Part shown: in pieces, positions 49,265 through 64,000 of the stretch
Numbering within the stretch: position 1 is the first letter of the stretch
Layout of the letters: every line of letters starts with the position of its first letter
Origin: Gemmatimonas sp.
GTDB lineage: Bacteria > Gemmatimonadota > Gemmatimonadetes > Gemmatimonadales > Gemmatimonadaceae
Direction of reading: 5' to 3'
Length of the DNA: 64,000 nt
Assembly (NCBI GenBank): GCA_965279375.1
Contig: OZ257156.1
Location: forward strand, 3,200,001 to 3,264,000
The notes under the pieces: generated by a model
The model's database searches: none
Told to the model about the DNA's origin: nothing
The model's input: only the letters and a program-made list of their open reading frames with translations
Made by a program: the position numbers and the translations under genes

Positions 49265-50083
49265 ATGCGCATCGACACTCGACGCTCGCTCGCCACAGGC
49301 CTGACTGCTGCATTCCTGGTGCTCACGGGCAGCGGTACCGTCCTCGCGCAGAGTGCAAGCGGGGGCGTGCGGCACTATCGAATCGACAGCAAGACCGAGC
49401 AGCTGGTGGATGCCGCGGCGATCGGCGCCGGAAAGCAGCAGGCGCTACTCGATCGGTCCGCGTTTCTCCGCGTGACGCTGGCCGATTCGGGAGCCGCGTC
49501 GACCATGCGCGTCGTCATCGATTCGCTTGTGGAGCGCGGCCCCAATTTGCCGCCGGGCATCGCGGCCACGGTGGACAGCGCCCGAGGCAAGGTCTTCACG
49601 GCGGCGCTCGACAAGGCCGGAAGCGTGACCCAACTCGCATATCCGAGTGCCGGCGGCACGTTGGCCACGGCGCTGGGCGGGCAGCTTGAGGTGTTCCTGC
49701 CGACCCTCAAGGCTGGCTTCGCGACGGGTGATACATGGACCATTCGCAGCGAACGGCCACAGACGATCACCAATGGACGCCTGACGGTGAAGCGCAGCAC
49801 GTCGTATACCGCCAAGGGTGAAGCGCTTCGGAATGGGGCCCCCGCACGGCGGCTCGACTTCACCTTCACGACGTCGGTGACCGGGACGCAGCAGCTCGGT
49901 GCGGCCTCCGCGCAGGTGGAGGGGACGTCCGTGGGCACTGGCACCGCGTTCGTTTCGCGCGCGGGCGTGTACCTCGGAGGCACGCGCACGGAAAAGGTCG
50001 AGCGCAGATTGCAACTCGATGGAGCGCCCGCGCCGGTGGTGGTGACCGCACAGAGCACCACCTCCATCACGCTGGTCAAGTAG
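49265..50083 (+). CDS. Hypothetical secreted beta-rich protein
   Basis: Signal peptide (TRRSL..VLA-Q); coherent codon usage; no recognised motif. Confidence 0.7.
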   Translation: MRIDTRRSLATGLTAAFLVLTGSGTVLAQSASGGVRHYRIDSKTEQLVDAAAIGAGKQQALLDRSAFLRVTLADSGAASTMRVVIDSLVERGPNLPPGIAATVDSARGKVFTAALDKAGSVTQLAYPSAGGTLATALGGQLEVFLPTLKAGFATGDTWTIRSERPQTITNGRLTVKRSTSYTAKGEALRNGAPARRLDFTFTTSVTGTQQLGAASAQVEGTSVGTGTAFVSRAGVYLGGTRTEKVERRLQLDGAPAPVVVTAQSTTSITLVK

Positions 50084-50145
50084 TGCCGCAGGTGCCCGCG
50101 CGAATGCGCTGAGCCCGCCGCGATCAAATTGAGTTGTGCCGGGGA

Positions 50146-50172
50146 GAAATCCGGCGTGCGGTGAGCGTCGTA
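50146..50172 (+). promoter_or_regulatory. Putative ECF-sigma (SigK/RpoT-like) promoter
   Basis: GAAATCC-16 nt-CGTA about 100 bp upstream of the DUF4331 operon. Confidence 0.4.
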
Positions 50173-50271
50173 GCTGGGGTGTTCGACCAAGCTCGGTTGA
50201 TCTGGGCCCGTCAATTGCGATAGGCGGGTGCGACCGAGTTCACGATACGTCCCCGTTCACCGGAGTCATCC

Positions 50272-50994
50272 ATGCCCCGTTCGTTTGTCACCAGGCGCCT
50301 GCTGCGCAATGCCGCATTTGTCGTCGCCAGCGTTACCGCGCTCACCGTCGCGCAGCGCGTCTACGCGTCCGATCACCAGGACACGCCCGAAGTCGAGCTG
50401 AATCCGCGTACGGACATCAACGATGTCTATGCGTTCCCGGGCTCCAGCGCCGATCGCATCGCGCTCGTACTGACGACGTCGAGCCCCATCGCGGGCACGT
50501 CGGCGTCGTTCGACCCGAATCTTCTGTATCAGCTGAAGATCGACAACACGGGCGACGCCGTCGAAGATCGCGTCATTCAGATCACCTTCGACGACGGTGT
50601 GGGTTCCGCGCAGAAGTACACCGTGCGCGGCCCGGTCGTACCCTCGATGACCGGCACCAAGACGGCGCTCGTCACGACGGGCGATGTGGTCACGGGCAAT
50701 GTCGGTAGCACGGCAGGTTCCGCCACCGCCACGCAGGTGTTCGCCGGGTTGCGCGCCGATCCGTTCGTGATCGATCTCGAACAGTTCTTCAACATCATCC
50801 CGGACCGTCGCCCGTCCACCGGGCCGCTCTCCGTACAGAATGGTGCGCCCGCCGGAGCGTTCCGCACGCCTGGCGTGGACTTCCTGAAGCCGTTCAATGC
50901 GCTCGCGATCGTCATCGAACTTCCCAAGGCGCTGCTGCAGTCCGCCACCGCTGCTGACGCGAAGTTCGGCGTCTGGGGCACGATCAGCCGCTAG
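50272..50994 (+). CDS. DUF4331 family secreted protein (N-terminal half)
   Basis: Signal peptide then SDHQDTP; DINDVYAF, Y.LKIDNTGD, VFAGLRADPF..DL; GGAG SD. Confidence 0.8.
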   Translation: MPRSFVTRRLLRNAAFVVASVTALTVAQRVYASDHQDTPEVELNPRTDINDVYAFPGSSADRIALVLTTSSPIAGTSASFDPNLLYQLKIDNTGDAVEDRVIQITFDDGVGSAQKYTVRGPVVPSMTGTKTALVTTGDVVTGNVGSTAGSATATQVFAGLRADPFVIDLEQFFNIIPDRRPSTGPLSVQNGAPAGAFRTPGVDFLKPFNALAIVIELPKALLQSATAADAKFGVWGTISR

Positions 50995-51071
50995 TTCGTC
51001 GCTGAGTCGCGCCGCATCACCGCAACTGCGCTGCATCTACTACGCCCTTTCACATACTCGGAGCTCTATCC

Positions 51072-51632
51072 ATGCGACAGCTGTTCTCGCCGCGCGCGTT
51101 CGCGCTGGCCCTCGCGATTCCCGTCCTGGCGGCTTGCTCGGACGACAACAACGACGGCGGCGGCATCACCACGCCCACGACGCCCGTCCGCACCTACACG
51201 CAGGTCGAGCGACTCGGCAATCCGCTCGTCAGCGAAGTGTTCTTCATGAAGCGCGATCACGGCCTGCACAACAGCACCGCACCGGCCACCGATGTCGCCA
51301 ATGATTTTGGTGGCAAGATCAAGGCGTTCACGAACGCGTTCAACCGTGGTCCTGCCATCGCCAACACGCTCGCGGCGGTGCTCGTCCCCGACATGTTGAT
51401 GGTCTACCCCAATCGCGCGGCGAACACCTCTGGTTGGTTGAGCTGGGCGCTCGCCAATGGCTACGGCGGACGCAATCTGCAGGATGACGTCGTCGACGCC
51501 GGCCTCACCGCCATCTTTGGCAAGCTGCTCGATCCGACGGCGACCGCGTTGGCTGGACTCACGTCGGACAACATCAGTACGTCGACGCGCACGTACCTGA
51601 CGACCTTCCCGTACCTGGAAGCGGCACGCTGA
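51072..51632 (+). CDS. DUF4331 family lipoprotein (C-terminal half)
   Basis: LAAC lipobox; QVERLGNPLVSE, PDML, GGRNLQDDVVD, FPYL; GGGAG SD. Confidence 0.78.
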   Translation: MRQLFSPRAFALALAIPVLAACSDDNNDGGGITTPTTPVRTYTQVERLGNPLVSEVFFMKRDHGLHNSTAPATDVANDFGGKIKAFTNAFNRGPAIANTLAAVLVPDMLMVYPNRAANTSGWLSWALANGYGGRNLQDDVVDAGLTAIFGKLLDPTATALAGLTSDNISTSTRTYLTTFPYLEAAR

Positions 51633-52876
51633 TGTCGATACGGACGATGCGTCGGCTGGTACTCGTTGCCATCGCTGCGGCACTTGGCGGTCTGGCCATC
51701 GTCCGTACGTCAGACCTCACGCCGGCCGCGACAAGGCAAACCACGAAAATCGCGGCGGTACAGCACGAACCCGGATTCTCCGAACGCGATATGCGCGACG
51801 AGCAGATTCGGGTGTGGCATCAGGCCCTCGATGCCGACCCAACGAGCGCGATTGCGTTGGGTCAGCTCGCAGCCTTGCATCTGCAGCGTGCCCGCGAAGG
51901 CGGCACGTGGGATGACTACGTACAGGCCGAGTCATTCGCGCGTCGCTCGCTCGGCAAACGGACACAACGCAATGCGGCGACCGCCTCGACGCTGGTCTCT
52001 GTGTTGCTGGCGCAGCATCGCTTCACGGAAGCGCGCGATGTGGCGGCCGAACTGGTGGAGCGCGAGCCCGACATCCCGCAGTATCGCGCCACGCTCGGCG
52101 AAGTCGCCATGGAGCTTGGTGACGACGCGACGGCCGAGCGGATGTTTCGCTCGGTGTGGCGGGAGCGCCATCTGTTGACGATCGCGCCGCGCGTTGCGCG
52201 TTGGCTCGAACTCACCAATCATGTTCGCGAGGCGCGGCAGCTACTGATTGCGGCGCGCAACGACGCCGTATCGCGACGCGACGTGGCCAAGGAAACGCAG
52301 GCCTGGTTCGAGATGCGCGTCGGCGACCTGGAGCTGCGCGACGGGCATCTGCGCGCAGCCGAGACGGCGTTCCGCGCGGGGCTGGCCATCGAGCCGGATG
52401 ATCCGCGACTTCTTGCGGCAATGGCGCGACTGGCCGACGCGAAGGGCAACGCGGCTGATGTCGCATCGTGGGGAGAACGCGCCATCGGATTGCAGCTCGA
52501 TCCAGCAACGCTCGGCCTCGTAGGCGATGCGTACGCCGCGCAGGGCGATAGTGCACGGGCGGCGGAATACTTCCAGTCTCTCGAAGTCGCGGTCAGCATG
52601 CAGCCGGGAGCGTATCATCGCGCGTGGAGCCTGTACCTGCTCGAGCACGGCCTCCGTGTGGACGACGTGCTGCGCAAGGCGCAGGACGAACTGGTGCAAC
52701 GCAAGGACATCTACGGCTACGACATTCTGGCGCTCGCGCTCTACAAGTCCGGGCGACAGGCGGAGGCACAAGAGGCGATGCGGCAAGCGCTGCGACTGAA
52801 CACGCCCGATCCGCTGTTGCGCCGTCATGCGCAGCTGATCAACGCGCCGTTGATCGCCTCGGCCGTGGTGCGCTGA
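51632..52876 (+). CDS. Tetratricopeptide-repeat protein with N-terminal anchor/signal
   Basis: TGATG coupling; helical Ala/Leu/Glu/Arg repeats such as LALALYKSGRQAEAQEAMRQAL. Confidence 0.82.
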   Translation: MSIRTMRRLVLVAIAAALGGLAIVRTSDLTPAATRQTTKIAAVQHEPGFSERDMRDEQIRVWHQALDADPTSAIALGQLAALHLQRAREGGTWDDYVQAESFARRSLGKRTQRNAATASTLVSVLLAQHRFTEARDVAAELVEREPDIPQYRATLGEVAMELGDDATAERMFRSVWRERHLLTIAPRVARWLELTNHVREARQLLIAARNDAVSRRDVAKETQAWFEMRVGDLELRDGHLRAAETAFRAGLAIEPDDPRLLAAMARLADAKGNAADVASWGERAIGLQLDPATLGLVGDAYAAQGDSARAAEYFQSLEVAVSMQPGAYHRAWSLYLLEHGLRVDDVLRKAQDELVQRKDIYGYDILALALYKSGRQAEAQEAMRQALRLNTPDPLLRRHAQLINAPLIASAVVR

Positions 52877-52878
52877 AC

Positions 52879-53484
52879 ATGTCGGAACTCTGGGCATTCG
52901 CGCAGCTGGGATTCGGACACATCGTCGCGTGGGATGCGGCGGATCACATTCTGTTCCTGCTGGTTCTGGCGGCTATCTACCGCGGCCGCGATTGGCGCGC
53001 GGCGCTGGCGGTGATCAGCGCGTTCACTGTTGGTCATTCGCTGACGCTCGCGCTCGCGGTCACCGATACGCTCGTGCTCCCTTCCCGCATCGTCGAATTT
53101 CTGATTCCCGTGACGATCGTCGCGACGGGCGTTGAGAATCTGTGGCTGCGCGAACGAGCCGCTGCGGGAACGTCAGCGAGACATCGGCCAATCTTCGCCG
53201 GCCTGTTCGGCCTTGTGCATGGCGCTGGCTTTGCGGGCTACCTCAAGAGTCTCTTCGTGGCGCAGCTCGCGCTCCCGTTGCTTGGCTTCAACCTTGGCAT
53301 CGAGGTGGGGCAGTTGGTCGTGCTCGCCGCCGCTGCGGTCGTATTCCTCACCGGCGATCGACTGTTGCGCGTACTGTTCGCGCCGCGGACCGCCTCGAGT
53401 GCGTTTCAGTGGCGACTGATGTGTGTGTCCGCCGTCATCACCGTGATCGCGAGCGGGTGGGCGTGGGAGCGCTTTCCGCGATGA
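52879..53484 (+). CDS. HupE/UreJ family membrane protein (putative Ni/Co transporter)
   Basis: LGFGHI, DHILFLL, AFTVGHSLTL, VEFLI..TI, FGLVHG.GFA, FNLGIEVGQ. Confidence 0.9.
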   Translation: MSELWAFAQLGFGHIVAWDAADHILFLLVLAAIYRGRDWRAALAVISAFTVGHSLTLALAVTDTLVLPSRIVEFLIPVTIVATGVENLWLRERAAAGTSARHRPIFAGLFGLVHGAGFAGYLKSLFVAQLALPLLGFNLGIEVGQLVVLAAAAVVFLTGDRLLRVLFAPRTASSAFQWRLMCVSAVITVIASGWAWERFPR

Positions 53485-53990
53485 GCACGAACGTGTGGCG
53501 GCGGTGGGGAGTGGTCGCGGCCTCGATGGCAATGCTGGTTGCCTCGCCACGACTGGCGCACGCGCACGCGATCCATACCACGATGACTGTGGTGACCGCC
53601 GATGCCGGAGGGGTCACGCTGCGCATTCGATCGTTCGCGGATGACTTCTCCGGCGCCGTTGCTCGGTATGCCGGCCGGTCGGCTCCTCGCGATTCGTCCG
53701 TGCTGGAGGCCGAAGTGCTGCGCTATGTGCGAGCGCAGTTCACTGCGGCGTCGTCAAGCGGCACTGCACTGCAACTCAGCTCCTGTGGCATCACACGCGC
53801 CAAGGAGCTGTACTGGGTGTGTGTGCGCATTGACGGTGCGCGATCGCTGGCCGGCCTGCTGCTGCGCAACCGCATGCTGACCGAATGGCACGCCGATCAG
53901 GTGAACATCGTGCAGGTTGAAGGCCCCAAATCCCGACGAACGATGCTCTTCACGAAGAACAGTGCTCCCGCCGCTATCGGCGCGGCATGA
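53481..53990 (+). CDS. DUF6702-like secreted protein
   Basis: ATGA coupling; signal peptide ending AHA then HAIHTTMT; IRSFADD; N.ML.E...DQVNIV. Confidence 0.7.
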   Translation: MSTNVWRRWGVVAASMAMLVASPRLAHAHAIHTTMTVVTADAGGVTLRIRSFADDFSGAVARYAGRSAPRDSSVLEAEVLRYVRAQFTAASSSGTALQLSSCGITRAKELYWVCVRIDGARSLAGLLLRNRMLTEWHADQVNIVQVEGPKSRRTMLFTKNSAPAAIGAA

Positions 53991-55056
53991 GCACGGTGTA
54001 GTCGAAGTCGAGCACGACCGCAGGATCGTACGCGCCGTTCGCGTCCTGGTACGGAAAGTCTGCACAGGCGCGATCCTTCGTCGCGACGGTGCGCAGGCGC
54101 ATCGCACCTATGTCCGATCGCCCGGGCAGCGCGTCCTTCGACAACACCTCCGTCCACGCATAGATGGTGTCGCCCGCGAAACAGGGCGCCACGTGCCGCC
54201 CTCCGTTGATGGCCGCGATCGTCTGCGCGTTCGCCAAGCCGTTGAACGACAGCGCACGTGCGAGGCTGATGATGTGGCCACCGTACACGATCCGTCGCCC
54301 GAAGCGTCCCTCGCGTTCCACGTGCGAGTTGAAGTGCACCTTGGCCGTGTTCTGGTAGAGCCGAGCCGCGAGCATGTGCTCCGCCTCCTCGATTGTCATA
54401 CCGTCCACATGATCGATGTGCTCGCCGACGGCGTAGTCGTCCCAGAGAAACGGACTGCCGGCCATGGTCGTGTCGTAGCGCCCCGGTGCGACGGCGTACG
54501 GCACGTGCAGCGTTGCAGTTGCCACAGATTCAGACAACTCGGGGACGACTGGCGTCGGGGCCGCTGCCGACACAGCGCGCTTGCGCACCATGGCCCAGCG
54601 CGTGTACTCGACCACCATCGCACCATGCTGATTGGTTCCCACCGAGCGCACGTACACGACGCCGGTCTTTCCGTCCTTGTTCTCCTTTACGCCCAGCACG
54701 GTGGACGTGGTCGTCACCGTGTCGCCCGGATACAGCGGCTCACCAAACCGACCGTCGGCGTAACCCAGATTGGCGATGGCGTTGAGCGATACGTCAGGCA
54801 CGGTCTTGCCAAAGACCAGGTGAAACGCGAGCAGACTATCCACCGGCGCGGTGGGCAAGCCAAGCGATTGCGCGAACGGCGCTGACGAGTTGATCGCGAA
54901 GCGCCCGCCGAAGAGCGCTGTGTAGAGCGCGACCTCGCCGGTCGTAACCGTGCGCGGCGTGGCGTGCTGAATGACTTGTCCGAGAAAGAAGTTCTCGAAG
55001 AAGTTGCCAGCACGCGTCTTACCGGTGAGTCCGGTGTCGACCGGCGTCGCGTTCAT
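53974..55056 (-). CDS. mch: Mesaconyl-C1-CoA hydratase (beta-methylmalyl-CoA dehydratase), double MaoC fold
   Basis: KT.AGNFFE.F..GQVI.HATPRTVT, FGKTVPDVSLNAIANLGYA, YQNTAKVHFN, YGGHIIS.ARALSFNGL; cluster context. Confidence 0.92.
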   Translation of the reverse strand: MNATPVDTGLTGKTRAGNFFENFFLGQVIQHATPRTVTTGEVALYTALFGGRFAINSSAPFAQSLGLPTAPVDSLLAFHLVFGKTVPDVSLNAIANLGYADGRFGEPLYPGDTVTTTSTVLGVKENKDGKTGVVYVRSVGTNQHGAMVVEYTRWAMVRKRAVSAAAPTPVVPELSESVATATLHVPYAVAPGRYDTTMAGSPFLWDDYAVGEHIDHVDGMTIEEAEHMLAARLYQNTAKVHFNSHVEREGRFGRRIVYGGHIISLARALSFNGLANAQTIAAINGGRHVAPCFAGDTIYAWTEVLSKDALPGRSDIGAMRLRTVATKDRACADFPYQDANGAYDPAVVLDFDYTVLMPRR

Positions 55057-55060
55057 CGGT

Positions 55061-56104
55061 TCAGAACCCATAGGCTGCAGCGAGCTCCGGATCCTTTCGT
55101 GCGACGAGCTCTGCGAGGTCCACGATCACCTTCGCCTGCTTCCACGTCGCGTCGTCCTGCATCTTCCCGTCGATAGTGGCCACACCGCTGCCCGACGGAA
55201 TCGCCTCGATCACGCGCTTGGCGAACAGCACTTCCTTCACATCCGGACTGAAGACACGACGCGCGATGGCGATTTGATTGGGAGCGAGTGACCACGCGCC
55301 GCTGCATCCCATGATGAATGCGTTGCGGAACTGTGCCTCGCATCCCGCTTCGTCCTTGAGATCGCCAAACGGACCGTAGAACGCACGGATACCGTGTGAC
55401 ACGCAAGCGTCCACCATGCGCGCGACGGTGTAGTGCCACAGATCCTGCTGCACGAACGTTCGCGCCGCGCCATCGTCGGTTGGATCACCCAGCACGCCGT
55501 AGAATGGATGCCCGCCGCCGACTCGCGTTGTCTTCATGCCGCGCGATGCCGCAAGATCCGCCGGCCCGAGGCTCATGCCATGCATACGCGGACTCGCGCC
55601 CGCGATCTGCTCGACGTTCTTGACCCCTTCGGCGGTCTCCAGAAGCGCATGCAGCAGGATGGGGCGCTTCACCTGATAGCGCGCCTCCAGCAACGCGAGA
55701 TACTGATCGACAAAGTGGATGTCCCACGGTCCCTCCACCTTGGGAATCATGAACACGTCCACCTTGTTGCCGGCTTCGCGCACGATGTCGTGCAGATCGT
55801 CGAGGAACCACGGGCTGTTGAGACAGTTCACTCGCACCCAGAGTGCGGTGTCGCCAAAGTCATTGTCGCGCGCAACGCTGATGAACCCCTGTCGCGCCGC
55901 TTCCTTGTCGTCGATGGGGATAGCGTCTTCCAGATTGCCGCAGAGGACATCGGTCTGCTTGGCCATCTCGGGCACACGGGCGCGGATCTTCTCGATGTGC
56001 GGCGGAAAGAAGTGAATCATCCGCTCGGGGCGCACCGGGAGTTCGCGCAACGGCACAGGTGCACCGATGGCGAGCGGCTTGTAGAAATTCACAGGGAGCT
56101 TCAT
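55061..56104 (-). CDS. mcl: (S)-malyl-CoA / beta-methylmalyl-CoA / (S)-citramalyl-CoA lyase, Chloroflexus type
   Basis: [84 protein letters not shown] match the recalled C. aurantiacus Mcl. Confidence 0.95.
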
Positions 56105-56140
56105 ACCGGTTACCAGTTTCGGGTTACGGGTGGCGAGTAG

Positions 56141-57361
56141 TTAGGAGACGGGCCCCGACACCACATGCGCGTCGTGGAGTGCGCCAACGGCGGCGGCGCT
56201 GAGGCCGAGCACGTCGAGCAGGATCTCGTCGGTGTGTTGGCCGAGTCGTGGAGCGCTGGCTGCGGGGAGTCGGTCGGAGGCGCTGAAGTGCAGGGGAGTG
56301 CCGGGAGTCAGATAGTGGCCGGTATCCGGATGCGTCACGTCAGCAAACAGCGGGTTGTCTGTTGAGAGATCGAGATCTTCCAACAGCGCTTCGCGCACCG
56401 TCCGATACGGGCCCCATGTCACGCGATGTGCGTCCAGCGTCGTGCGCACATCGGTCAGCGGGCGTGCGGCAAACCACGGTTCGAGCAGCGCGGCGATCTG
56501 TTCGCGTGCCAGGAACCGGTTGCCCTCGGTCGCGAGATCGAGCCCCAGCGACTCGCCGAGCGCGCGCACATCCTCGGCGATGCCCGTTGCCTTCACCAGT
56601 GTGCTCCACTGCAGCTCCGTGAGTCCGACGACCATCACGCGCGCACCGTCCGCCGTGGTGAAATCGCGTCCGAAGGCACCGTACAGGTAGTTGCCGTAAC
56701 GCGGCCGATCCTCATCGTTGACGGACACTTCCGCGATCATCCCCAGATTGCCGAGCATCGCCAGCCCGACATCCTTGAGTGCGAGCGTCACGAGCTGCCC
56801 CTCACGCGTACGCGAGCGATGGCGTTCGGCTGCGAGAATCGCCACCGCGATCATGTTCCCCGTGATGGCGTCCCACGCCGGAAATACATGGTTAACCGGA
56901 TCGGACGCGTCGGGTGCGCCTGTCAGGGCGGGGAAGCCGAGCGCAGGATTGACGGTATAGTCCACCTCGGATCCGCCGTCCCGGCGGCCGAGGAGGTTGA
57001 CCATGATCAGATCGTCGCGCTGGGCGCGCAGGCGTTCGTAGTCGAGCCAGCCGCGCGCGGGGAAGTTGGTGCTGAAGATGCCGGCGTCCGCACCCGGTGC
57101 GCAGATCAGTTGCGTGAGCAATTCCTGGCCGCGCGGGTTTCGCAAATCCACCGCAATCGATCGCTTGCCCTTGTTGAGCCCATCCCAGAACAGGCTATGG
57201 CCCGTCGACTGTGAGACGGGCCAGCGTCGATAGTCGAGGCCACCGCCAATCTGATCGAAGCGGATCACATCAGCGCCAAGCTGGGCCAGCGTCATGCCAC
57301 CCAGCGGCGCCGCGACGAACGCGGACCCTTCGACGATGCGCATGCCGCGCAACACGCCCAT
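56141..57361 (-). CDS. mct: Mesaconyl-CoA C1-C4 CoA transferase (2-methylfumaryl-CoA isomerase), family III
   Basis: VEGSAFVAAPLGGMTLAQLGADVIRFD, GGGLDY.RWP, GRRDGGSEVDYTVN; TGATG coupling to smtB. Confidence 0.93.
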   Translation of the reverse strand: MGVLRGMRIVEGSAFVAAPLGGMTLAQLGADVIRFDQIGGGLDYRRWPVSQSTGHSLFWDGLNKGKRSIAVDLRNPRGQELLTQLICAPGADAGIFSTNFPARGWLDYERLRAQRDDLIMVNLLGRRDGGSEVDYTVNPALGFPALTGAPDASDPVNHVFPAWDAITGNMIAVAILAAERHRSRTREGQLVTLALKDVGLAMLGNLGMIAEVSVNDEDRPRYGNYLYGAFGRDFTTADGARVMVVGLTELQWSTLVKATGIAEDVRALGESLGLDLATEGNRFLAREQIAALLEPWFAARPLTDVRTTLDAHRVTWGPYRTVREALLEDLDLSTDNPLFADVTHPDTGHYLTPGTPLHFSASDRLPAASAPRLGQHTDEILLDVLGLSAAAVGALHDAHVVSGPVS

Positions 57362-58587
57362 CAGATGACCCGCTTCTGCCGCAGCGTTGCGATCTCCGAA
57401 TCGCTCAGTTCCAGCAATTCTCGCAGCACTTCGTCGGTGTGTTGCCCAAGCGTGGGGCCTAGGCTGCGGATGCTCCCGGGCGTCTCTGACAGCAGCGGTA
57501 CAGGTGACGGCACGATGATGGACTCACCGGTCGAGGGTTCGTCCACCGCCACAAGATTGCGGCGCGCGTGAAACTGACGATCGCCAAAGATGTCCGCGAT
57601 GTTGTTGAGCGGTCCTGCCGGCGTATCGGTGGCGTAGCAGCGCTCGAGCACCTCTTCTCTCGTAAGCGAGCCGCACCAGTCGCGGACGATCTCGTTCACG
57701 TCGTGGCGGTGATGCAACCGCGTCTTCTGCTCGCCGTATGTACTCGACGAGGCAAGCTCGGGGCGGCCCATCGCCAGTGCCAGTCGCATGAACAGCTTGT
57801 CGGTGGCGCACGAAATGGCCACCCACTTGCCGTCCTTGGTGGCAAAGTGTCCGTGAGGACAGGCGAAGTCGTTGTGCGACGAGCCCAGTCGCTCGCGCAC
57901 GATGCCGTACATCGCAAAGGCGGGTGCCAGCTCCTCGGTGGCGCGGAATACCGATTCATACAGTGCCGCGTCCACGTACTGCCCTTCGCCCGTCGCCTCG
58001 CGATGACGTAGCGCCATCAGCACGCCGAGGCAGCCATAGAGCCCGGTCATGTAGTCGCCGAGCGTCGTGGAGCCCGGGGTCACGGGAGTGCCCTTGGGCA
58101 TACCGGCGAGGTATGCGATGCCGCCGACGGCATGCGCGACACGCGCGAATCCAGGTCGGTCGCTGTAGGGGCCCGTTTGTCCGTAGCCCGTGACCCGCAG
58201 CATGATCAGTCCCGGATTGATCTCGTGCAGCACATCCCACCCCAGGCCCCACTTCTCGAGCGTGCCGGTGCGGAAGTTCTCGCAGAGGATGTCGGTCTTG
58301 GCGACAAGCTGCTTGAACACCTCGACGCCTTCGGGCCGGCGCAGATCGAGCGTGACGGAGCGCTTGTTGCGCCCTTCGCTCATCCACGTGAGCGTATCGC
58401 CGCGCTTGGAGGGGGTGCCGAAGCGACGCAGGGCATCGCCGCCGACCGGATGCTCCACCTTGAGCACGTCCGCGCCGAACTCGCCGAGAATGGTGGCGCA
58501 GTACGGCGCCGCGATCACGGTCGCAATATCCATCACGCGGATGCCGTCCAGCGGCAACGTGCTGTTCGCTTGCTTCGTGGAGGTCAT
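57361..58587 (-). CDS. smtB: Succinyl-CoA:(S)-malate/(S)-citramalate CoA-transferase subunit B
   Basis: Family III CoA-transferase; [49 protein letters not shown] match recalled SmtB. Confidence 0.88.
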
Positions 58588-58658
58588 GGCTGCGTCGAAA
58601 TCCGCTGAGCGTGAGGCATTCGTCGGTTAACCGTTCGTTGGTCGGCCGCAGGACCGGA

Positions 58659-59909
58659 CTAGATGATCTTGTGTTGCCGCAGGCGCTGAATCTCGGCCGC
58701 CGATATGCCGAGCAGCTCGCGCATGACCTCCACCGTGGCATCACCGAGCGTCGGTCCCAGACTGTCGATGCGCCCGGGCGTCGCCGAGAGCGTTGGCACG
58801 ACGCCTGGCACCACGACATCTCCGATGCCCGGTTCATCGAAGCGCGCGAGGTTGCCGCGGGCGATGAAGTGTTCGTCCTCGAAGATGTCGGCGATGCTGT
58901 TGACCTTCCCCACCGGCACTTCCTCGGCCAGACACTTCGTCAGCACCTCGTCGCGCAGTTGACTCCCCACCCACTCGATCACGAGCTGATTGACGACATC
59001 GCGCGCCGCCAGCCGCTTGCGCTGATCGCCGTACAATCCGGACGACGCGAGCTGCGGTTGCTCCATCGCCACCGAGAGTCGCTCGAACATCTTGTCGGTC
59101 GTGCAGGCGATCGCGATCCACTTGTCGTCTTTCGTGCGGAAGTGCCCGTGCGGACAGGCCACGAAGCTCCCCGATCCTTCGCGCTCGCGAATCCGTCCAT
59201 CCACGCCGTAGGCAGCCGCGATCTCTTCCAACACGCGAAAAACGGCCTCGTAGATGCCAACGTCGATGATCTGCCCCTTGCCGGTCCGTTCCTTGTGGCG
59301 CAGCGCGATCATGATGCCGATCGCCCCGTACAGACTGGCGATGTAGTCGCCGAGGGGCACGGTGCCCGGAAGTACGGGCGTTTCACCCGGAAAGCCCGCG
59401 AGATAGTTCAAGCCACCGAACGCCTGCGCGATGTGCGCAAACCCGGAGCGACGGCGATACGGACCTGTCTGTCCGTAGCCGGATACCCGCAGCATCACGA
59501 GACCCGGGTTTGCGGCGCTGAGTTCCTTCCAGCCGAGTCCCCACTCTTCCATCGTGCCCGGACGGAAGTTCTCGATCAGCACATCCGATTTGGCCACCAG
59601 CTTGAGAAAGAGCTGCACGCCTTCCGGTTGTCGCAGATCGACCGTGACGGACTTCTTGTTGCGCGCCTCACTCAGCCAGTTGAGCGTCGCGTCGGGGCGC
59701 TTGGTCGGCGTGCCGAAGCGCCGCATCGGATCACCCGCGATCGGGTGTTCGACCTTGTACACCTCGGCGCCGAACTCTCCGAGCATCGATGCGGCGTAAG
59801 GGCCGGCGAGAAAGTTGCCGACGTCCAGCACTCGCACGCCGGTGAGCGGGCGTACCGTCTGGCCCTGCTCGGCCGCTGGTGCCGCCTCCGCGTCATTGGC
59901 TCGAGTCAT
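58659..59909 (-). CDS. smtA: Succinyl-CoA:(S)-malate/(S)-citramalate CoA-transferase subunit A
   Basis: Paralog of the adjacent gene; DVGNFLAGPYAAS, LNWLSEARN, RRSGFAHIA, ACPHGHF; GGGAG SD before ATG 59909. Confidence 0.88.
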   Translation of the reverse strand: MTRANDAEAAPAAEQGQTVRPLTGVRVLDVGNFLAGPYAASMLGEFGAEVYKVEHPIAGDPMRRFGTPTKRPDATLNWLSEARNKKSVTVDLRQPEGVQLFLKLVAKSDVLIENFRPGTMEEWGLGWKELSAANPGLVMLRVSGYGQTGPYRRRSGFAHIAQAFGGLNYLAGFPGETPVLPGTVPLGDYIASLYGAIGIMIALRHKERTGKGQIIDVGIYEAVFRVLEEIAAAYGVDGRIREREGSGSFVACPHGHFRTKDDKWIAIACTTDKMFERLSVAMEQPQLASSGLYGDQRKRLAARDVVNQLVIEWVGSQLRDEVLTKCLAEEVPVGKVNSIADIFEDEHFIARGNLARFDEPGIGDVVVPGVVPTLSATPGRIDSLGPTLGDATVEVMRELLGISAAEIQRLRQHKII

Positions 59910-60007
59910 CGCGTGCACTCCCACGAAAGCCTGAAGTTCGGCAGCGCCGATACGGGATCGGGCCGCCGCGAGTATTTTCCACTGAATCACTACCGTCACG
60001 CTGCGCT

Positions 60008-60025
60008 GCTGCAACTTTGTGCAGC
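60008..60025. promoter_or_regulatory. Palindrome in the smtA/meh divergent promoter region (possible operator)
   Basis: GCTGCA-ACTTTG-TGCAGC. Confidence 0.35.
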
Positions 60026-60056
60026 TCTTGAGCGCGCTTCCCGCCTTCGCCCTGTC

Positions 60057-60905
60057 ATGACAGAACCTGTGGTGGAGTATCGCGACTGGATAGGGCGCAT
60101 GGAAAGTCTTCACGATCCGCTCTGTCCAACGCAAGCAGCGGCTGCCGCTGCGACATTCGATGAGCCGGACACGCCCGTCGGCGTTGGTGATCCGCTGCCC
60201 CCACTGTGGCACTGGTTCTACTTTCTGCCTCGCGCGATGCAGCAGACGCTGAACGGCGATGGCCACCCCGCGCGTGGGGAATTCATGCCACCGGTACCGT
60301 ATCCGCGGCGCATGTTCGCTGGCGCGCGCCTCACGGTGCATCGCCCTCTTCTCATTGGGCATGGCGCGCAGCGAGAGGGCGTCATTCGTGATGTCGTGCT
60401 CAAGTCGGGTCGGACAGGAGCGCTCGCCTTTGTCACGGTGGGCTATCGCATCGTGCAGGACGGCGTGCTCTGTATCGAGGAGGAGCAGGACATCGTGTAT
60501 CGGGAGCCGGGTGTTCCGGTGGTGGCGCCGAATGTCACCGCGTTGCCGCCCCTCGCCCCCGGGGTATGGTCACGCATGGTTTCGCCGGACTCACGTCTGC
60601 TCTTTCGGTTTTCGGCGCTAACGTTCAACGCGCACCGAATTCACTACGATCGCGCGTACGCGATGGAGCAGGAGGGGTACCCGGGACTCGTCGTGCACGG
60701 GCCGCTGACCGCCATGCTGATGGTGGGTCTTGTGCGCCAACACTCGCCGCGGTCGGTTCGCGGCTTCACCTTTCGCGGCTTGGCTCCTCTCTTCGACCTC
60801 TCCCCGTTTCGGATTTCCGCCCGCCCGGTCTCGGATGACGTGCACTGTCTGGCGGAAGGCCCGGACGGAAAGCCGGCGCTCGAAGCCACCGTTCAGCTGC
60901 AGTAG
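60057..60905 (+). CDS. meh: Mesaconyl-C4-CoA hydratase (3-methylfumaryl-CoA hydratase; itaconyl-CoA hydratase family)
   Basis: WIGR, LPPLWHWFYF, DGHP.RG.F.PP, RRMFAG, EEQDIVYR, LFRFSALTFNAHRIHYD, GLVVHGPL; cluster context. Confidence 0.9.
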   Translation: MTEPVVEYRDWIGRMESLHDPLCPTQAAAAAATFDEPDTPVGVGDPLPPLWHWFYFLPRAMQQTLNGDGHPARGEFMPPVPYPRRMFAGARLTVHRPLLIGHGAQREGVIRDVVLKSGRTGALAFVTVGYRIVQDGVLCIEEEQDIVYREPGVPVVAPNVTALPPLAPGVWSRMVSPDSRLLFRFSALTFNAHRIHYDRAYAMEQEGYPGLVVHGPLTAMLMVGLVRQHSPRSVRGFTFRGLAPLFDLSPFRISARPVSDDVHCLAEGPDGKPALEATVQLQ

Positions 60906-61015
60906 CCCGTTCCGTTAGCTCGTGACTGCGAGGCGCGGCGTACGACGCCGTACGCCGTCTCGTGAATGTCGCGCGGCGTCACGTCTGTCGTCGTCCGTTG
61001 CCGCTCTCGATATCC

Positions 61016-64000
61016 ATGGATCAGTACCGCGTCCTGCAATTCGCGCCGGAAGGATTTCTCGTCCTCGACGCCGAGTGTCGCATCCGATTCGGCAACGCGG
61101 CGGCCGAACAACTCTGTGCCGCACGCGGAACGGAGTGGATGGGCGCGCTGCTCTGGCAGGCGCTTCCGGTCGGATCGCCGGAGTTGCTCGAAGCGTCGGT
61201 CCGTCGCGCGGCCGCCGAGCAAAACAGCGTGGAGTTTGTCGGCCGACACGAGGCGTCGGGCGACGAGTTCCGGGTGACGATCTTCCGCGCGGAGGACTGC
61301 CTCGTCGTGTCGCTGCTCGATCTCGAGGCGCTGCAGTCGACCGAGCGTGCGCTGCTGGCTCGAGAGGCGCAGCTGGAACGCGTACTTGTTGCGACAGGCG
61401 CGGCGGCATTCGACCTCGATCTCGTCACCGGCGAGACGTATCTCAACGCGCACTTCGGGGAGCTCTTTGGCTACCGCGAAGGAGAGGCTCCAACTGACTG
61501 GCCGTCGTACGCGTCGCACTTCGACGCGGACGATCTCCGTGCTGCAGAAGCCGCCGCGCATCAGGCGCTGCTCAGCGGCACATCGTACACCGTCGACTGC
61601 CACATCACGCGTGCGGACGGACGATCGGCGTGGGTGCGACTCCGTGGCGATGTGATGCCCAACGAAGAGGGACGTGCCATTCGGAGCTCGGGCACGGTGA
61701 TCGACATTACCGCCGAGCGCGAACGGGCGACGGCGTTGCAGGAGAGCCAGCGTCAACTCAGCGCGGCGCAGCGGTTGGCGGGGGTGGGCAGTTGGTCGTG
61801 GGACATTCGAACCGGCGCGGTCGCGTGGTCCGATGAGATGTTCCGCATCCTTGGCTATGATGTCGCCTCGGTGGCTGCGTCGTTCGAGCTGGTAACCGCA
61901 CTGGCAGTCGACGATACGCGGCGCGAGGAGTTCATGGCGCGCGTGCAGCGCTCCCTCGAGGGAGAGTCCGGATACGACTTCGAGATGCCGATGCGGCGTC
62001 CGGACGGACAGATCCGGCTGCTGCACACCCGAGGCGAGGTGGAGCGCGATGGGAGTGGCGCGCCCATTCGCATGACTGGCACGGCCGAAGACGTGACCGA
62101 TCGACGCGCGGCCGTCATGGCGCTTCGCCGCTCGGAGGAGGAGCTCTTCCGCGCGCAACGCATGGCGCGCATTGGCAGCTTCGTGCGCTCAGTGGAGACG
62201 GGATCGCTGTGGTGGTCGCCGATGACACGCACGATTCTCGAGATCGGCGACGACGAGGTCCCCACCCTCGAACTCGCGCTGACGCGCGTGCCGGCGGAGG
62301 CGGCGGATCGCTACCGACAGTTGGCGAAGCGCGCCGCGGAGACTGGTTTGCCTTACGAGATGGAGTCCGAGGCGGTGGTACCCAGCGGACGGCGGCTCGT
62401 GCTCCGATTGTCCGGCGAAGTGGATCGCGACGCGGAAGGACGCACGATCTCCATCCACGGCCTGCTCGCGGACATCACGGAGCAGCGCGAACAGGAGCGC
62501 GCTCTGCGCGAGAGCGAGGTGCGCTTTCGCACCGTCTGGGAGGCCTCGCCGATCGGCATTCGCCTGACCGACGCGCAAGGCAAGACGTTGTACGTGAATC
62601 CGCGTGCGTTGCAGATGTTTGCCTGCACCGAAGGGGAGTTTCTCGCGGAGCGCTGGCGTGATCATCTGCATCCGGACGACCGTGAACGCGTGGCGCTGGA
62701 AGGGCGTGACGCGGTACAGCGGGAGCGCGACAAGCGGGTGGAGTACCGTGTGATGCGGCCAGATGGACGGACCATCTACGTGCGGGCGACCATCGCCGCC
62801 GTGCGGGCACCGGACGGTCGTTTTGCGGGTCACGTTGGCGCACTCGAAGATCTCACCGAAGAAGTCGAGGCGCGGCGCGAGAAGGAGATGCTGGAGCAGC
62901 AGATGCACCAGGCGCAGAAGCTCGAGTCGCTCGGCGTGCTGGCCGGTGGGATTGCGCACGACTTCAACAACCTGCTCGTGGGTGTGCTGACGAATGCGAG
63001 CATGGCGCTGATGGACCTCTCGCCGGACGCCCCAGCGTACGAGACCGTGCGCGATATCGAACGCGCCGCCCAGCGCGCCGCCGACCTCACGCGGCAGCTG
63101 CTCGCGTATTCGGGCAAAGGACGATTCATCATCGAGCCGTTGTCGCTCTCCGAGTTGGCCGTCGAGATGACGCAGCTCTTGCGCACGGTCGTCTCCAAGC
63201 GTGCCACACTGCAGCTCGACCTGCACCACGAACTGCCACTCGTGCGGGGCGACGCCACGCAGCTGCGGCAAGTGGTGATGAACCTCATCACGAACGCCTC
63301 GGACAGCCTCGGCGAGTCCGACGGTGAGATCACGCTGCGCACGACACGCCAAGTGCTGCAGCACGGTATCCCCGACGCAATCAGCTTCGGCGGTCCGCTC
63401 GCCCCGGGTGAGTACGTGGTGCTGGAAGTCGCCGATACAGGCGTCGGTATGGAGCCCGCGACGATCCAGCGGATCTTCGATCCGTTCTTCACGACCAAGT
63501 TCACCGGGCGCGGCCTTGGCCTCGCGGCGACGCTTGGCATCGTGCGCGGTCACGACGGCGCAATCGGTGTGCGCAGTCGTCCGGGGATAGGCACCAGCAT
63601 GTCGCTCTACTTTCCCGTGTCCAACGGCGTGCGGCGCGAGGCTGCAGCCGGCCTCGCTGCTCCGCTCTCCGGTCACGGCGCGATTCTGGTTGTGGACGAC
63701 GACGATGGCGTGCGTGCAGTCGCTCGCGCACTCTTGCAGCGACAGGGGTTCGGTGTCATTCTCGCGGCGAACGGTCAGGAGGCGGTCGCACAGTTCGCGG
63801 CGCATCGGGCGGAAATCCGCGCGGTGCTGCTGGACCTGACCATGCCGGTGATGGGTGGCGAAGAGGCACTGCGGCGACTCCGAGAGGCGGACCCGACGGT
63901 GCGCGTCGTCCTGATGTCGGGCTATAGTGATGTGGACGTGGAGGGCACCTTTGCCAGTGCCGGCCTGTCCGGGTTCCTGCAGAAGCCGTTTCGCGCCGAT
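61016..64000 (+). CDS. Cytoplasmic multi-PAS hybrid histidine kinase / response regulator (3'-partial, absent from ORF track)
   Basis: ATG 61016 (MDQYRVLQFAPEGF) and the last codons (GFLQKPFRAD) share a frame; about 5 PAS segments; [35 protein letters not shown]; receiver VVDDD..LLDLTMP. Confidence 0.9.
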   Translation, partial: MDQYRVLQFAPEGFLVLDAECRIRFGNAAAEQLCAARGTEWMGALLWQALPVGSPELLEASVRRAAAEQNSVEFVGRHEASGDEFRVTIFRAEDCLVVSLLDLEALQSTERALLAREAQLERVLVATGAAAFDLDLVTGETYLNAHFGELFGYREGEAPTDWPSYASHFDADDLRAAEAAAHQALLSGTSYTVDCHITRADGRSAWVRLRGDVMPNEEGRAIRSSGTVIDITAERERATALQESQRQLSAAQRLAGVGSWSWDIRTGAVAWSDEMFRILGYDVASVAASFELVTALAVDDTRREEFMARVQRSLEGESGYDFEMPMRRPDGQIRLLHTRGEVERDGSGAPIRMTGTAEDVTDRRAAVMALRRSEEELFRAQRMARIGSFVRSVETGSLWWSPMTRTILEIGDDEVPTLELALTRVPAEAADRYRQLAKRAAETGLPYEMESEAVVPSGRRLVLRLSGEVDRDAEGRTISIHGLLADITEQREQERALRESEVRFRTVWEASPIGIRLTDAQGKTLYVNPRALQMFACTEGEFLAERWRDHLHPDDRERVALEGRDAVQRERDKRVEYRVMRPDGRTIYVRATIAAVRAPDGRFAGHVGALEDLTEEVEARREKEMLEQQMHQAQKLESLGVLAGGIAHDFNNLLVGVLTNASMALMDLSPDAPAYETVRDIERAAQRAADLTRQLLAYSGKGRFIIEPLSLSELAVEMTQLLRTVVSKRATLQLDLHHELPLVRGDATQLRQVVMNLITNASDSLGESDGEITLRTTRQVLQHGIPDAISFGGPLAPGEYVVLEVADTGVGMEPATIQRIFDPFFTTKFTGRGLGLAATLGIVRGHDGAIGVRSRPGIGTSMSLYFPVSNGVRREAAAGLAAPLSGHGAILVVDDDDGVRAVARALLQRQGFGVILAANGQEAVAQFAAHRAEIRAVLLDLTMPVMGGEEALRRLREADPTVRVVLMSGYSDVDVEGTFASAGLSGFLQKPFRAD

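Follow-up and report, generated by a model that had tools for sequence, protein, structure and literature searches.

A predicted 3-hydroxypropionate bi-cycle with a Chloroflexales-type glyoxylate-assimilation operon in a Gemmatimonas genome

The window analyzed here, a 64,000-nucleotide stretch of Gemmatimonas sp. DNA (assembly GCA_965279375.1, contig OZ257156.1, positions 3,200,001 to 3,264,000), contained six contiguous genes for the glyoxylate-assimilation half of the 3-hydroxypropionate bi-cycle (mch, mcl, mct, smtB, smtA, and meh). Comparison of the sequences confirmed them as a real, intact, and correctly named operon of the Chloroflexales glyoxylate-assimilation cluster type, and the orthology and synteny of all six genes upheld the pathway proposed in an earlier reading of this DNA, made without database searches (the sequence-only reading). 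The enzyme activities of the six proteins are predicted from orthology. Because pcs-mcr, acc, pcc-like, mce, mcm, sdh, and fum genes were also encoded in the host genome (G000), the bi-cycle is, by annotation, closed at the gene level, with a candidate gene for each step. Its main role is probably mixotrophic: with the help of light, acetate, propionate, and glycolate would be assimilated together with bicarbonate, and the cycle would also serve as an electron sink.

As the sequence-only reading had described, smtA-smtB-mct-mcl-mch lay on the minus strand with meh divergent from them, and all six open reading frames of the window ran intact and at full length from ATG to stop (Table 1). The gaps between the minus-strand genes were 4, 36, -1, and 71 bp, where the negative value reflects the one-base overlap of the smtB stop codon with the mct start, and the five genes were thus spaced as in an operon. 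Each of the six genes was present as a single copy in G000, and the only other family III CoA-transferase found in the genome was 28-31% identical. The labels smtA and smtB were taken from the sequence-only reading and from gene position, and the smtA protein was 57% identical to its smtB neighbour. In the 147-bp spacer between meh and smtA, no sigma-70 consensus was seen (0 versus 0.8 expected), and a promoter and terminator scan of the operon region found none. A public contig covered window positions 50001-63511 with no differing letter, although it may come from the source sample and is therefore not independent. Four sequencing runs from one study were listed as containing this DNA, and no RNA run was among them.

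Three of the proteins had close matches among solved structures. Mcl scored 664 bits to 6kin and 658 bits to 4l7z, which we take to be the enzymes of Roseiflexus and Chloroflexus, whereas its scores to the malyl-CoA lyases 4l9y and 5ugr (presumably of Rhodobacter and Methylorubrum) were 196 and 187 bits, and at most 95 bits were obtained to CitE. On these scores, Mcl is of the Chloroflexus type, as had been proposed from the sequence alone. Mch scored 583 bits to 4e3e and exceeded the cut-off of PF19315. Mct scored 649 bits to 7xkg and 642 bits to 8apq, and the next CoA-transferase scored 88 bits. The structure 8APQ is described as Mct of C. aurantiacus, with Asp165 as the catalytic residue, Arg47 and Tyr136 in the mesaconate pocket, Leu/Ile43 at the entrance, and Arg75, Phe101, and Arg104 as the CoA clamp (PMC9813914). 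In the Mct of the window, positions 43, 47, 74, 75, 101, 104, 136, and 165 (C. aurantiacus numbering) were occupied by L, R, L, R, F, R, Y, and D. Seven of these eight residues were identical, and the change of Ile to Leu at position 74 also occurred in 2 of the 15 Chloroflexales rows. The score of Mct on TIGR04253 (686.9 bits) fell below the curated cut-off of 725, which counts against membership. The cut-off was judged to be narrow because the copy of Ca. Viridilinea, a member of the Chloroflexales, also fell short (702.9 bits); two other Chloroflexales copies scored 909 and 866 bits.

SmtA and SmtB matched PF02515. In the model and PDB searches, no specific model or close solved structure was found for SmtA, SmtB, or Meh, and these three proteins were therefore judged by synteny. 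The best PDB match of Meh was the itaconyl-CoA hydratase 8khg (224 bits), and Meh was 36-46% identical to look-alikes encoded next to other mct-like genes, mostly alphaproteobacterial, against 62-65% for its Chloroflexales counterparts.

When the operon was compared with those of Chloroflexales, the order and orientation of the six genes were the same in 15/15 cases, in line with the Chloroflexus-like order claimed beforehand. These operons were 15 of the 29 available from a search at the level of the order to which Ca. Viridilinea belongs, in which mct was present in 29 of 81 genomes. The identities were 72-75% for mch, 79-82% for mcl, 68-72% for mct, 77-84% for smtB, 76-83% for smtA, and 62-65% for meh. 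The description of the proteins as nearly identical to those of Chloroflexus thus held for stretches and failed for whole proteins (62-84%).

G000 was a single contig of 5,309,734 bases, 99.95% complete. The Prs protein of G000 was 98, 96, and 95% identical to those of Gemmatimonadaceae, Gemmatimonadales, and uncultured Gemmatimonas sp. genomes, 75% identical to that of another Gemmatimonas sp., and 46% identical to that of a Chloroflexales genome (Viridilinea), which agrees with the Gemmatimonadota host suggested earlier and points to a Gemmatimonas-type genome, not Chloroflexota. The genes flanking the operon were common to named Gemmatimonadales loci. The codon use of the operon was host-like, with a GC content at third codon positions (GC3) of 0.74-0.81 against a median of 0.80; meh was the least host-like gene, falling at the 4th percentile for GC3. 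The single contig, the host-like codons, and the flanks shared with named Gemmatimonadales loci ruled out a contaminating contig from Chloroflexota.

The reactions of SmtAB and Mcl and of the Mcl-Mch-Mct-Meh-Mcl sequence are established biochemistry in Chloroflexus. By the same route in G000, SmtAB would transfer CoA from succinyl-CoA to malate, Mcl would cleave malyl-CoA into acetyl-CoA and glyoxylate, and Mcl, Mch, Mct, Meh, and then Mcl again would convert glyoxylate and propionyl-CoA into pyruvate and acetyl-CoA. The cycle would be completed by Acc, Mcr, Pcs, Pcc, Mce, and Mcm, whose genes lie at other loci of G000; PMC9802188 lists the enzymes of the bi-cycle in its Fig. S2 legend. Driven by ATP from light and by surplus reductant, acetate, propionate, and glycolate from algae would be assimilated together, with a net uptake of bicarbonate, so that the net balance would be glycolate + HCO3- -> pyruvate. 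The substrates would be supplied by a glcDEF-like triplet, acs, and a prpE-like ligase, and the bi-cycle would replace the glyoxylate shunt, the ethylmalonyl-CoA route, and the glycerate route, which were not found in G000.

The remaining genes of the bi-cycle were distributed over the genome. The pcs gene ran straight into mcr, and both were intact (G000:C1:3950229-3959494). Pcs matched 6eqo over its full length and had ligase, hydratase, and reductase domains, and Mcr matched 8hi4 and 8hjw over its full length. The accA, accB, accC, and accD genes scored above their cut-offs, and a second biotin carboxylase lay beside a carboxyltransferase at 3932400-3937445, with a biotin carrier two genes on. 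None of the Pcc-specific models scored above its cut-off, and the best model for the carboxyltransferase was mmdA (788 of 999); this gene set is likely to encode Pcc. The mce epimerase, the N- and C-domains of mcm, meaB, and sdhABC were above their cut-offs, and a class I fumarase-like gene scored 274 against a cut-off of 276 while its domain model was above the cut-off. Pyruvate phosphate dikinase, phosphoenolpyruvate carboxylase, phosphoenolpyruvate carboxykinase, Acs, and a beta-carbonic anhydrase also scored above their cut-offs, and a glcD-glcE-glcF-like triplet and a prpE-like ligase were present. Among the genes that the sequence-only reading had proposed to look for, mcr, pcs, acc, mcm, and pufLM were thus found, together with pcc-like and glcDEF-like candidates, whereas ccr, isocitrate lyase, and malate synthase were not found in G000. 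Isocitrate lyase was absent from the 5 carriers searched, with positive controls in 8/14. Malate synthase was above the cut-off in 1 of 87 genomes of the genus and glyoxylate carboligase in 0/87; the match of the latter in G000 was acetolactate synthase (IlvB). When the reductase domain of Pcs was used as a query for Ccr, the only other match in G000 was 25% identical at 61 bits, and the same domain matched Ccr in the PDB at 170 bits.

G000 contained a photosynthesis gene cluster with pufL, pufM, pufC, and acsF. Both cyclases were present, the anaerobic bchE, above its cut-off, and the aerobic acsF (633399-635090 and 3104478-3105563, respectively), and bchE lay outside the photosynthesis cluster, at a distance of ~21 kb from cbbM and its neighbours. 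The photosynthesis cluster was flanked by a tandem array of eight ABC-permease-like genes, each encoding ~415 aa (G000:C1:3136167-3146215). Oxidases of the cbb3 and CtaD types were also encoded. The large subunit of a hydrogenase scored 884 bits to 7uus and 7utd, presumably the group 2a Huc enzyme, versus at most 212 bits to other hydrogenases. In addition, an FccAB-like pair might serve as a sulfide entry to the reaction centre. SoxB was below the cut-off in 5/5 carriers tested. For CoxL form I, SoxY, nitrogenase, NarG, NosZ, CbbQ, and PhaC, no credible match was obtained in motif screens, which are weak and do not prove absence.

A form II RuBisCO cluster was formed by the adjacent genes cbbM, fbp, and prk, all above their cut-offs. 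The RuBisCO scored 888 bits on PRK13475 (cut-off 489) and 887 bits to the form II enzyme 5c2c, and PRK scored 501 bits on PRK15453 (cut-off 362). The KNDE carbamylation motif of CbbM was intact, the codon use of the cluster was host-like, and copies of cbbM with 86-91% identity occurred in 3 other genus genomes. For the rest of the Calvin cycle, tkt, rpe, rpiB, gap, and tpi were above a cut-off, a pgk-like gene lay inside the gap operon, two class 1 fructose-1,6-bisphosphatases were encoded, and transaldolase was just below its cut-off. The only candidate for fructose-1,6-bisphosphate aldolase was a divergent class II protein of 488 aa (G000:C1:3051302-3052768; L278), which scored 47 bits against a cut-off of 25.5; its gene sat beside pgi in a tal-pyk-pgi cluster and was found in 5/5 genus genomes tested. 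A PF01791 aldolase search found only DeoC, and a PF00274 search drew no match even in the controls. The prpE-like propionate-CoA ligase gene lay two genes past prk (608549-615479; L029, L287) and, in G095, directly after prk, suggesting that CO2 is fixed as an electron sink when propionate is consumed.

Table 1. Location of the operon genes (window coordinates) and of other loci of the host genome (G000 coordinates).
Feature	Location	Strand	Predicted product or content	Basis
mch	53974..55056	-	beta-methylmalyl-CoA dehydratase (mesaconyl-C1-CoA hydratase), double MaoC fold, 360 aa	PDB 4e3e, Chloroflexales orthologues, PF19315
mcl	55061..56104	-	(S)-malyl-CoA / beta-methylmalyl-CoA / (S)-citramalyl-CoA lyase, Chloroflexus type, 347 aa	PDB 6kin, 4l7z
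mct	56141..57361	-	2-methylfumaryl-CoA isomerase, 406 aa	PDB 7xkg, 8apq; active-site residues
smtB	57361..58587	-	succinyl-CoA:(S)-malate CoA-transferase subunit by position, 408 aa	PF02515; synteny
smtA	58659..59909	-	succinyl-CoA:(S)-malate CoA-transferase subunit by position, 416 aa, start codon inferred	PF02515; synteny
Spacer, 147 bp	59910..60056	.	separates the start codons of smtA and meh, which diverge; presumed bidirectional promoter	sequence
meh	60057..60905	+	mesaconyl-C4-CoA hydratase, 282 aa	divergent-gene match in 15 Chloroflexales operons
pcs	G000:C1:3954014-3959494		trifunctional propionyl-CoA synthase, 1826 aa	2496 bits to 6eqo
mcr	G000:C1:3950229-3954017		bifunctional malonyl-CoA reductase, 1262 aa	1214 bits to 8hi4; YxxxK motifs, both present
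Group 2a-like hydrogenase cluster	G000:C1:1762236-1780017 (L030)		maturation-type genes; preceded by sensor-like protein and response regulator	
FccAB-like pair	G000:C1:2026160-2027820 (L193)		FccB domains beside small cytochrome-like gene	FccB domains above cut-off
cbbM-fbp-prk	G000:C1:608549-612022		form II RuBisCO cluster	adjacent genes, all above cut-off

The occurrence of these systems was surveyed in 87 genomes of the genus, including G000. Since many of these genomes are incomplete and related ones do not count as independent, the numbers are given without statistics. The mct gene was found in 14 genomes, mcr in 19, pcs in the same 19, pufL in 54, and form II RuBisCO in 4. A hydrogenase of the G000 type was present in 12 genomes at >= 78% identity, and 5 more had distant hydrogenases only. 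Both halves of the bi-cycle occurred in 13 of the 87 genomes, which means that 13 of the 14 mct carriers also held pcs-mcr. Among these 13, pufL was present in 10, not far from the 54/87 overall, RuBisCO in 2 (G000 and G019), and the hydrogenase in 2 (G000 and G015). Since the hydrogenase accompanied both halves in only 2 of 13 genomes, an inorganic donor is not the usual companion of the pathway. G000 alone combined both halves, pufL, RuBisCO, and hydrogenase. A second single-contig genome, G042, had the six-gene operon, pcs-mcr, and pufL, and had neither RuBisCO nor a G000-type hydrogenase (L117, L118).

Light-aided co-assimilation was favored because the standard acetate and glyoxylate routes were not found and most carriers had no matching inorganic donor. 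Several observations weigh against it. The candidate inorganic donors of G000 (the group 2a-like hydrogenase and FccAB-like pair) and bchE fit real autotrophy equally well, and six genus genomes keep pcs-mcr with no mct found, so that the two halves are separable. Furthermore, the carboxyltransferase of Pcc was assigned by inference (mmdA, 788 of 999), and all three members of the glcDEF-like triplet were below the NCBIfam cut-offs. The sequence-only reading had offered either CO2 fixation by the full bi-cycle or co-assimilation; as mcr and pcs were present and intact, autotrophy was not refuted, and the choice is only half settled. Photolithoautotrophy at low oxygen would fix bicarbonate alone through the bi-cycle and/or the Calvin cycle, with H2 or sulfide as the donor and reverse electron flow from the type II reaction centre. 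It is unlikely as the principal role, even though a candidate gene exists for every bi-cycle step and the hydrogenase cluster with its maturation-type genes, the FccAB-like pair, BchE, and the cbb3 oxidase would suit it. H2 has been described to stimulate the growth of CO2-fixing strains, not of G. aurantiaca (PMC7784904, in the text available). Against it, 11 of the 13 two-half genomes, several of them 81-89% complete, had no G000-type hydrogenase, and SoxB stayed below the cut-off in the carriers as given above. The accessible parts of PMC9426454 and PMC11316326 report no isolated autotroph in the phylum, and, according to the text of PMC7844134, one cultured phototrophic species, which may or may not carry these genes, showed no autotrophic growth on sulfide or thiosulfate.

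The operon could also act in G000 as a carbon-positive photorespiratory bypass, in which glycolate from the oxygenase reaction of RuBisCO would be oxidized to glyoxylate and then turned into pyruvate by the enzymes of the operon and by Acc, Mcr, and Pcs, a route that would fix one additional carbon. The intact cbbM-fbp-prk cluster with its host-like codons and its copies in three genus genomes, the accompanying tkt, rpe, rpiB, gap, tpi, pgk-like, and divergent class II aldolase genes, and the failure to find other glyoxylate routes are all consistent with such a bypass, and the same design has been built synthetically from Chloroflexus genes (Shih 2014, as cited in PMC6432428). It is nevertheless quite unlikely to be the main function: RuBisCO was found in only 2 of the 13 two-half carriers, 2 of the 4 RuBisCO genomes were without mct and mcr, and the operon and cbbM loci are ~2.65 Mb apart. 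No convincing phosphoglycolate phosphatase was found in G000, where the lone candidate scored 106 against a cut-off of 180 and fitted PpaX better. Because RuBisCO is rare among the carriers, the bypass cannot explain the retention of the operon in the genus. A main function in the degradation of C5 dicarboxylates (itaconate, mesaconate, and citramalate) to pyruvate and acetyl-CoA is very unlikely. Such a function would account for the itaconyl-CoA hydratase as the best solved relative of Meh and for the weak similarity that Mch shows to the RipB model and Mcl to the RipC model, but these matches were far below the cut-offs (108 of 340 and 130 of 375, respectively), and pcs-mcr accompanies mct in 13 of its 14 carriers. 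Moreover, Mct and Mch are unnecessary for this route, which counts against it. It is highly improbable that the operon is a decaying relic out of use. Signs of decay occurred in relatives, where G014 had broken mct and mch genes and no smtAB, G069 and G536 lacked smtAB, G081 had a split mcr, and G051 retained only scraps of pcs and mcr. In G000, all eight genes were full length with host-like codons, and the catalytic residues were kept in Mct and Mcr, the two proteins checked.

Lithoautotrophy and the salvage of RuBisCO glycolate are compatible with co-assimilation in G000 and not exclusive of it. A bolder and doubtful combination of these would make G000 a photo(litho)autotroph or strong mixotroph with a bi-cycle and a form II Calvin cycle, whose type II reaction centre would be fed by H2 or sulfide and whose operon would double as a carbon-positive salvage route for glycolate from RuBisCO; on this view, phototrophic Gemmatimonas would have had the bi-cycle for long, with a fixed pcs-mcr site and repeated loss, as a sister branch to the Chloroflexales pathway and not a recent copy of it.

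The history of the two halves was examined in the same genus genomes. The site upstream of a dapE-like gene, where pcs-mcr usually lies, was examined in 70 of the 80 genomes with a dapE match. The mcr gene was at this site in 16 of 18 mcr carriers, and the site was empty, with a flanking small gene within 150 bp, in 29 of 52 non-carriers. In G051, a deletion scar was seen at the usual site, where a short piece resembling the start of pcs adjoined the final 98 codons of mcr (L152, 812-1429). The mcr carriers were scattered across a host tree of two genes (DapE-like and Asd), which is itself weak. The fixed site, the empty sites, the scrap in G051, and the scattered carriers favor an old insertion of pcs-mcr followed by losses. 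All six operon genes stood together in 10 of the 14 mct carriers. Of the other carriers, G066 had the genes split over two contigs, the contig of G019 began at smtB, and G069 and G014 had no smtAB between meh and mct. The operon had several different neighbourhoods across the genus, and strict vertical descent was unsupported, since operon and host distances in 13 genomes gave a rho of 0.08, matched by 607 of 2000 permutations. In one Gemmatimonas sp. genome, pcs-mcr lay directly beside meh and the five-gene operon (L052:1-11400), and the bi-cycle-specific genes therefore form one island there.

In a quick Mct tree of 84 rows, the 19 Gemmatimonadaceae rows grouped together (SH-aLRT 89), with one Rubrivivax and one Thiohalocapsa row inside, and this group stood beside, not within, the main Chloroflexales clade (97). 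In an unrooted concatenated tree, Gemmatimonadaceae and Chloroflexales were separate with a support of 1.0. In a draw of 401 genomes from across the phylum, mct turned up in 7, which belonged to 4 genera of the host family. Mct-like genes with 45-63% identity occurred in Alphaproteobacteria, Gammaproteobacteria, Burkholderiales, and Actinomycetota, and the rest of the operon was not in the DNA examined (L041, L047-L085). Because many Mct-like genes stand without the rest of the operon nearby, mct alone is a poor marker of the bi-cycle.

On the mch side of the operon, a split DUF4331 pair and TPR-like, HupE/UreJ-like, and DUF6702 genes on the plus strand converged on mch (window 50272-53990); this set adjoined the operon in some relatives and was absent in others. 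On the other side, a multi-sensor hybrid histidine kinase gene lay directly 3' of meh (window 61016-64000, plus strand), a position that was kept in the closest relatives, and the kinase is a possible regulator of the operon.

To our knowledge, the bi-cycle has been shown to work in Chloroflexales only. The sequence-only reading had placed the novelty in the host, which did not stand, since all bi-cycle genes and the same operon order have been published for two Gemmatimonadaceae metagenome-assembled genomes (MAGs), with bacteriochlorophyll-synthesis matches in rows of the supplement (PMC9802188). In the accessible text of that survey of 52,515 MAGs, 23 two-pathway MAGs are given, all of Sulfolobales with the 3-hydroxypropionate/4-hydroxybutyrate plus the dicarboxylate/4-hydroxybutyrate pathway, and the pairing of bi-cycle and Calvin cycle is absent from these 23. 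A preprint (bioRxiv 10.64898/2026.09.02.748891) notes markers of the bi-cycle in freshwater Gemmatimonadota and, in the text available, calls them unvalidated, with a role outside Chloroflexales not established. PMC10581226, whose accessible sections leave hydroxypropionate unmentioned, reports glcDEF for the phylum and type II RuBisCO for Gemmatimonadota from wastewater. The phototrophs of the phylum are described as photoheterotrophs with autotrophy unconfirmed, as far as the available parts of PMC7844134, PMC8547001, PMC9426454, and PMC11316326 go, and PMC7784904 describes group 2a H2 oxidation in G. aurantiaca. The literature search, whose coverage largely excluded subscription papers and preprint supplements, found no paper on a Gemmatimonadota genome with a full bi-cycle and a Calvin cycle.

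The operon alone is therefore ordinary, being already published for the host group, and the form II RuBisCO/PRK cluster alongside it is less ordinary. The added value lies in the context, in which one closed genome combines a predicted full bi-cycle and a predicted Calvin cycle with a reaction centre and candidate inorganic donors. With both halves present in 13 of the 87 genomes of the genus, of which G000 and G042 are single contigs, a remark on two MAGs becomes a common, testable trait, which bears on how much bicarbonate is taken up by phototrophic Gemmatimonas deemed to be photoheterotrophs.

When the system was compared with known ones, the Chloroflexus/Roseiflexus cluster shared the six genes, their order and orientation, 62-84% identity, and the Mct active-site residues. 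It differed in that the operon described here is from another phylum and has tighter spacers, pcs and mcr stand apart from it as a separate pair of genes at a distance of 0.69 Mb, and G000 additionally has form II RuBisCO and PRK. The Gemmatimonadaceae MAGs of Garritano et al. 2022 (PMC9802188) resembled G000 in the family of the host, the operon order, and the bacteriochlorophyll-synthesis matches given in the supplement. Those two MAGs are 87-90% complete, with the pathway scored as 92% complete, and are not among the 23 two-pathway MAGs that the accessible text lists, whereas the single contig of G000 is 99.95% complete and encodes a full-length Mcr. Partial bi-cycles in Proteobacteria are described in the available text of PMC6593406, where a glyoxylate/propionyl-CoA module is proposed for organic co-assimilation in Ca. 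Kentron, Ca. Thiosymbion, Ca. Accumulibacter, and Ca. Competibacter. According to the same text, Thiosymbion has a Calvin cycle as well, and Kentron has an open cycle without mcr and pcs, both of which are intact in G000. The synthetic 3-hydroxypropionate photorespiratory bypass (Shih et al. 2014, as described in PMC6432428), which the combination of bi-cycle and form II RuBisCO in G000 mirrors, placed the same enzyme set beside RuBisCO, and G000 likewise has a glycolate oxidase-like complex. The bypass attempted by synthetic biologists was engineered in a cyanobacterium and gave no growth phenotype in that account, whereas in G000 the co-occurrence is natural, the bypass function is hypothetical, and the candidate for the phosphatase step is below its cut-off.

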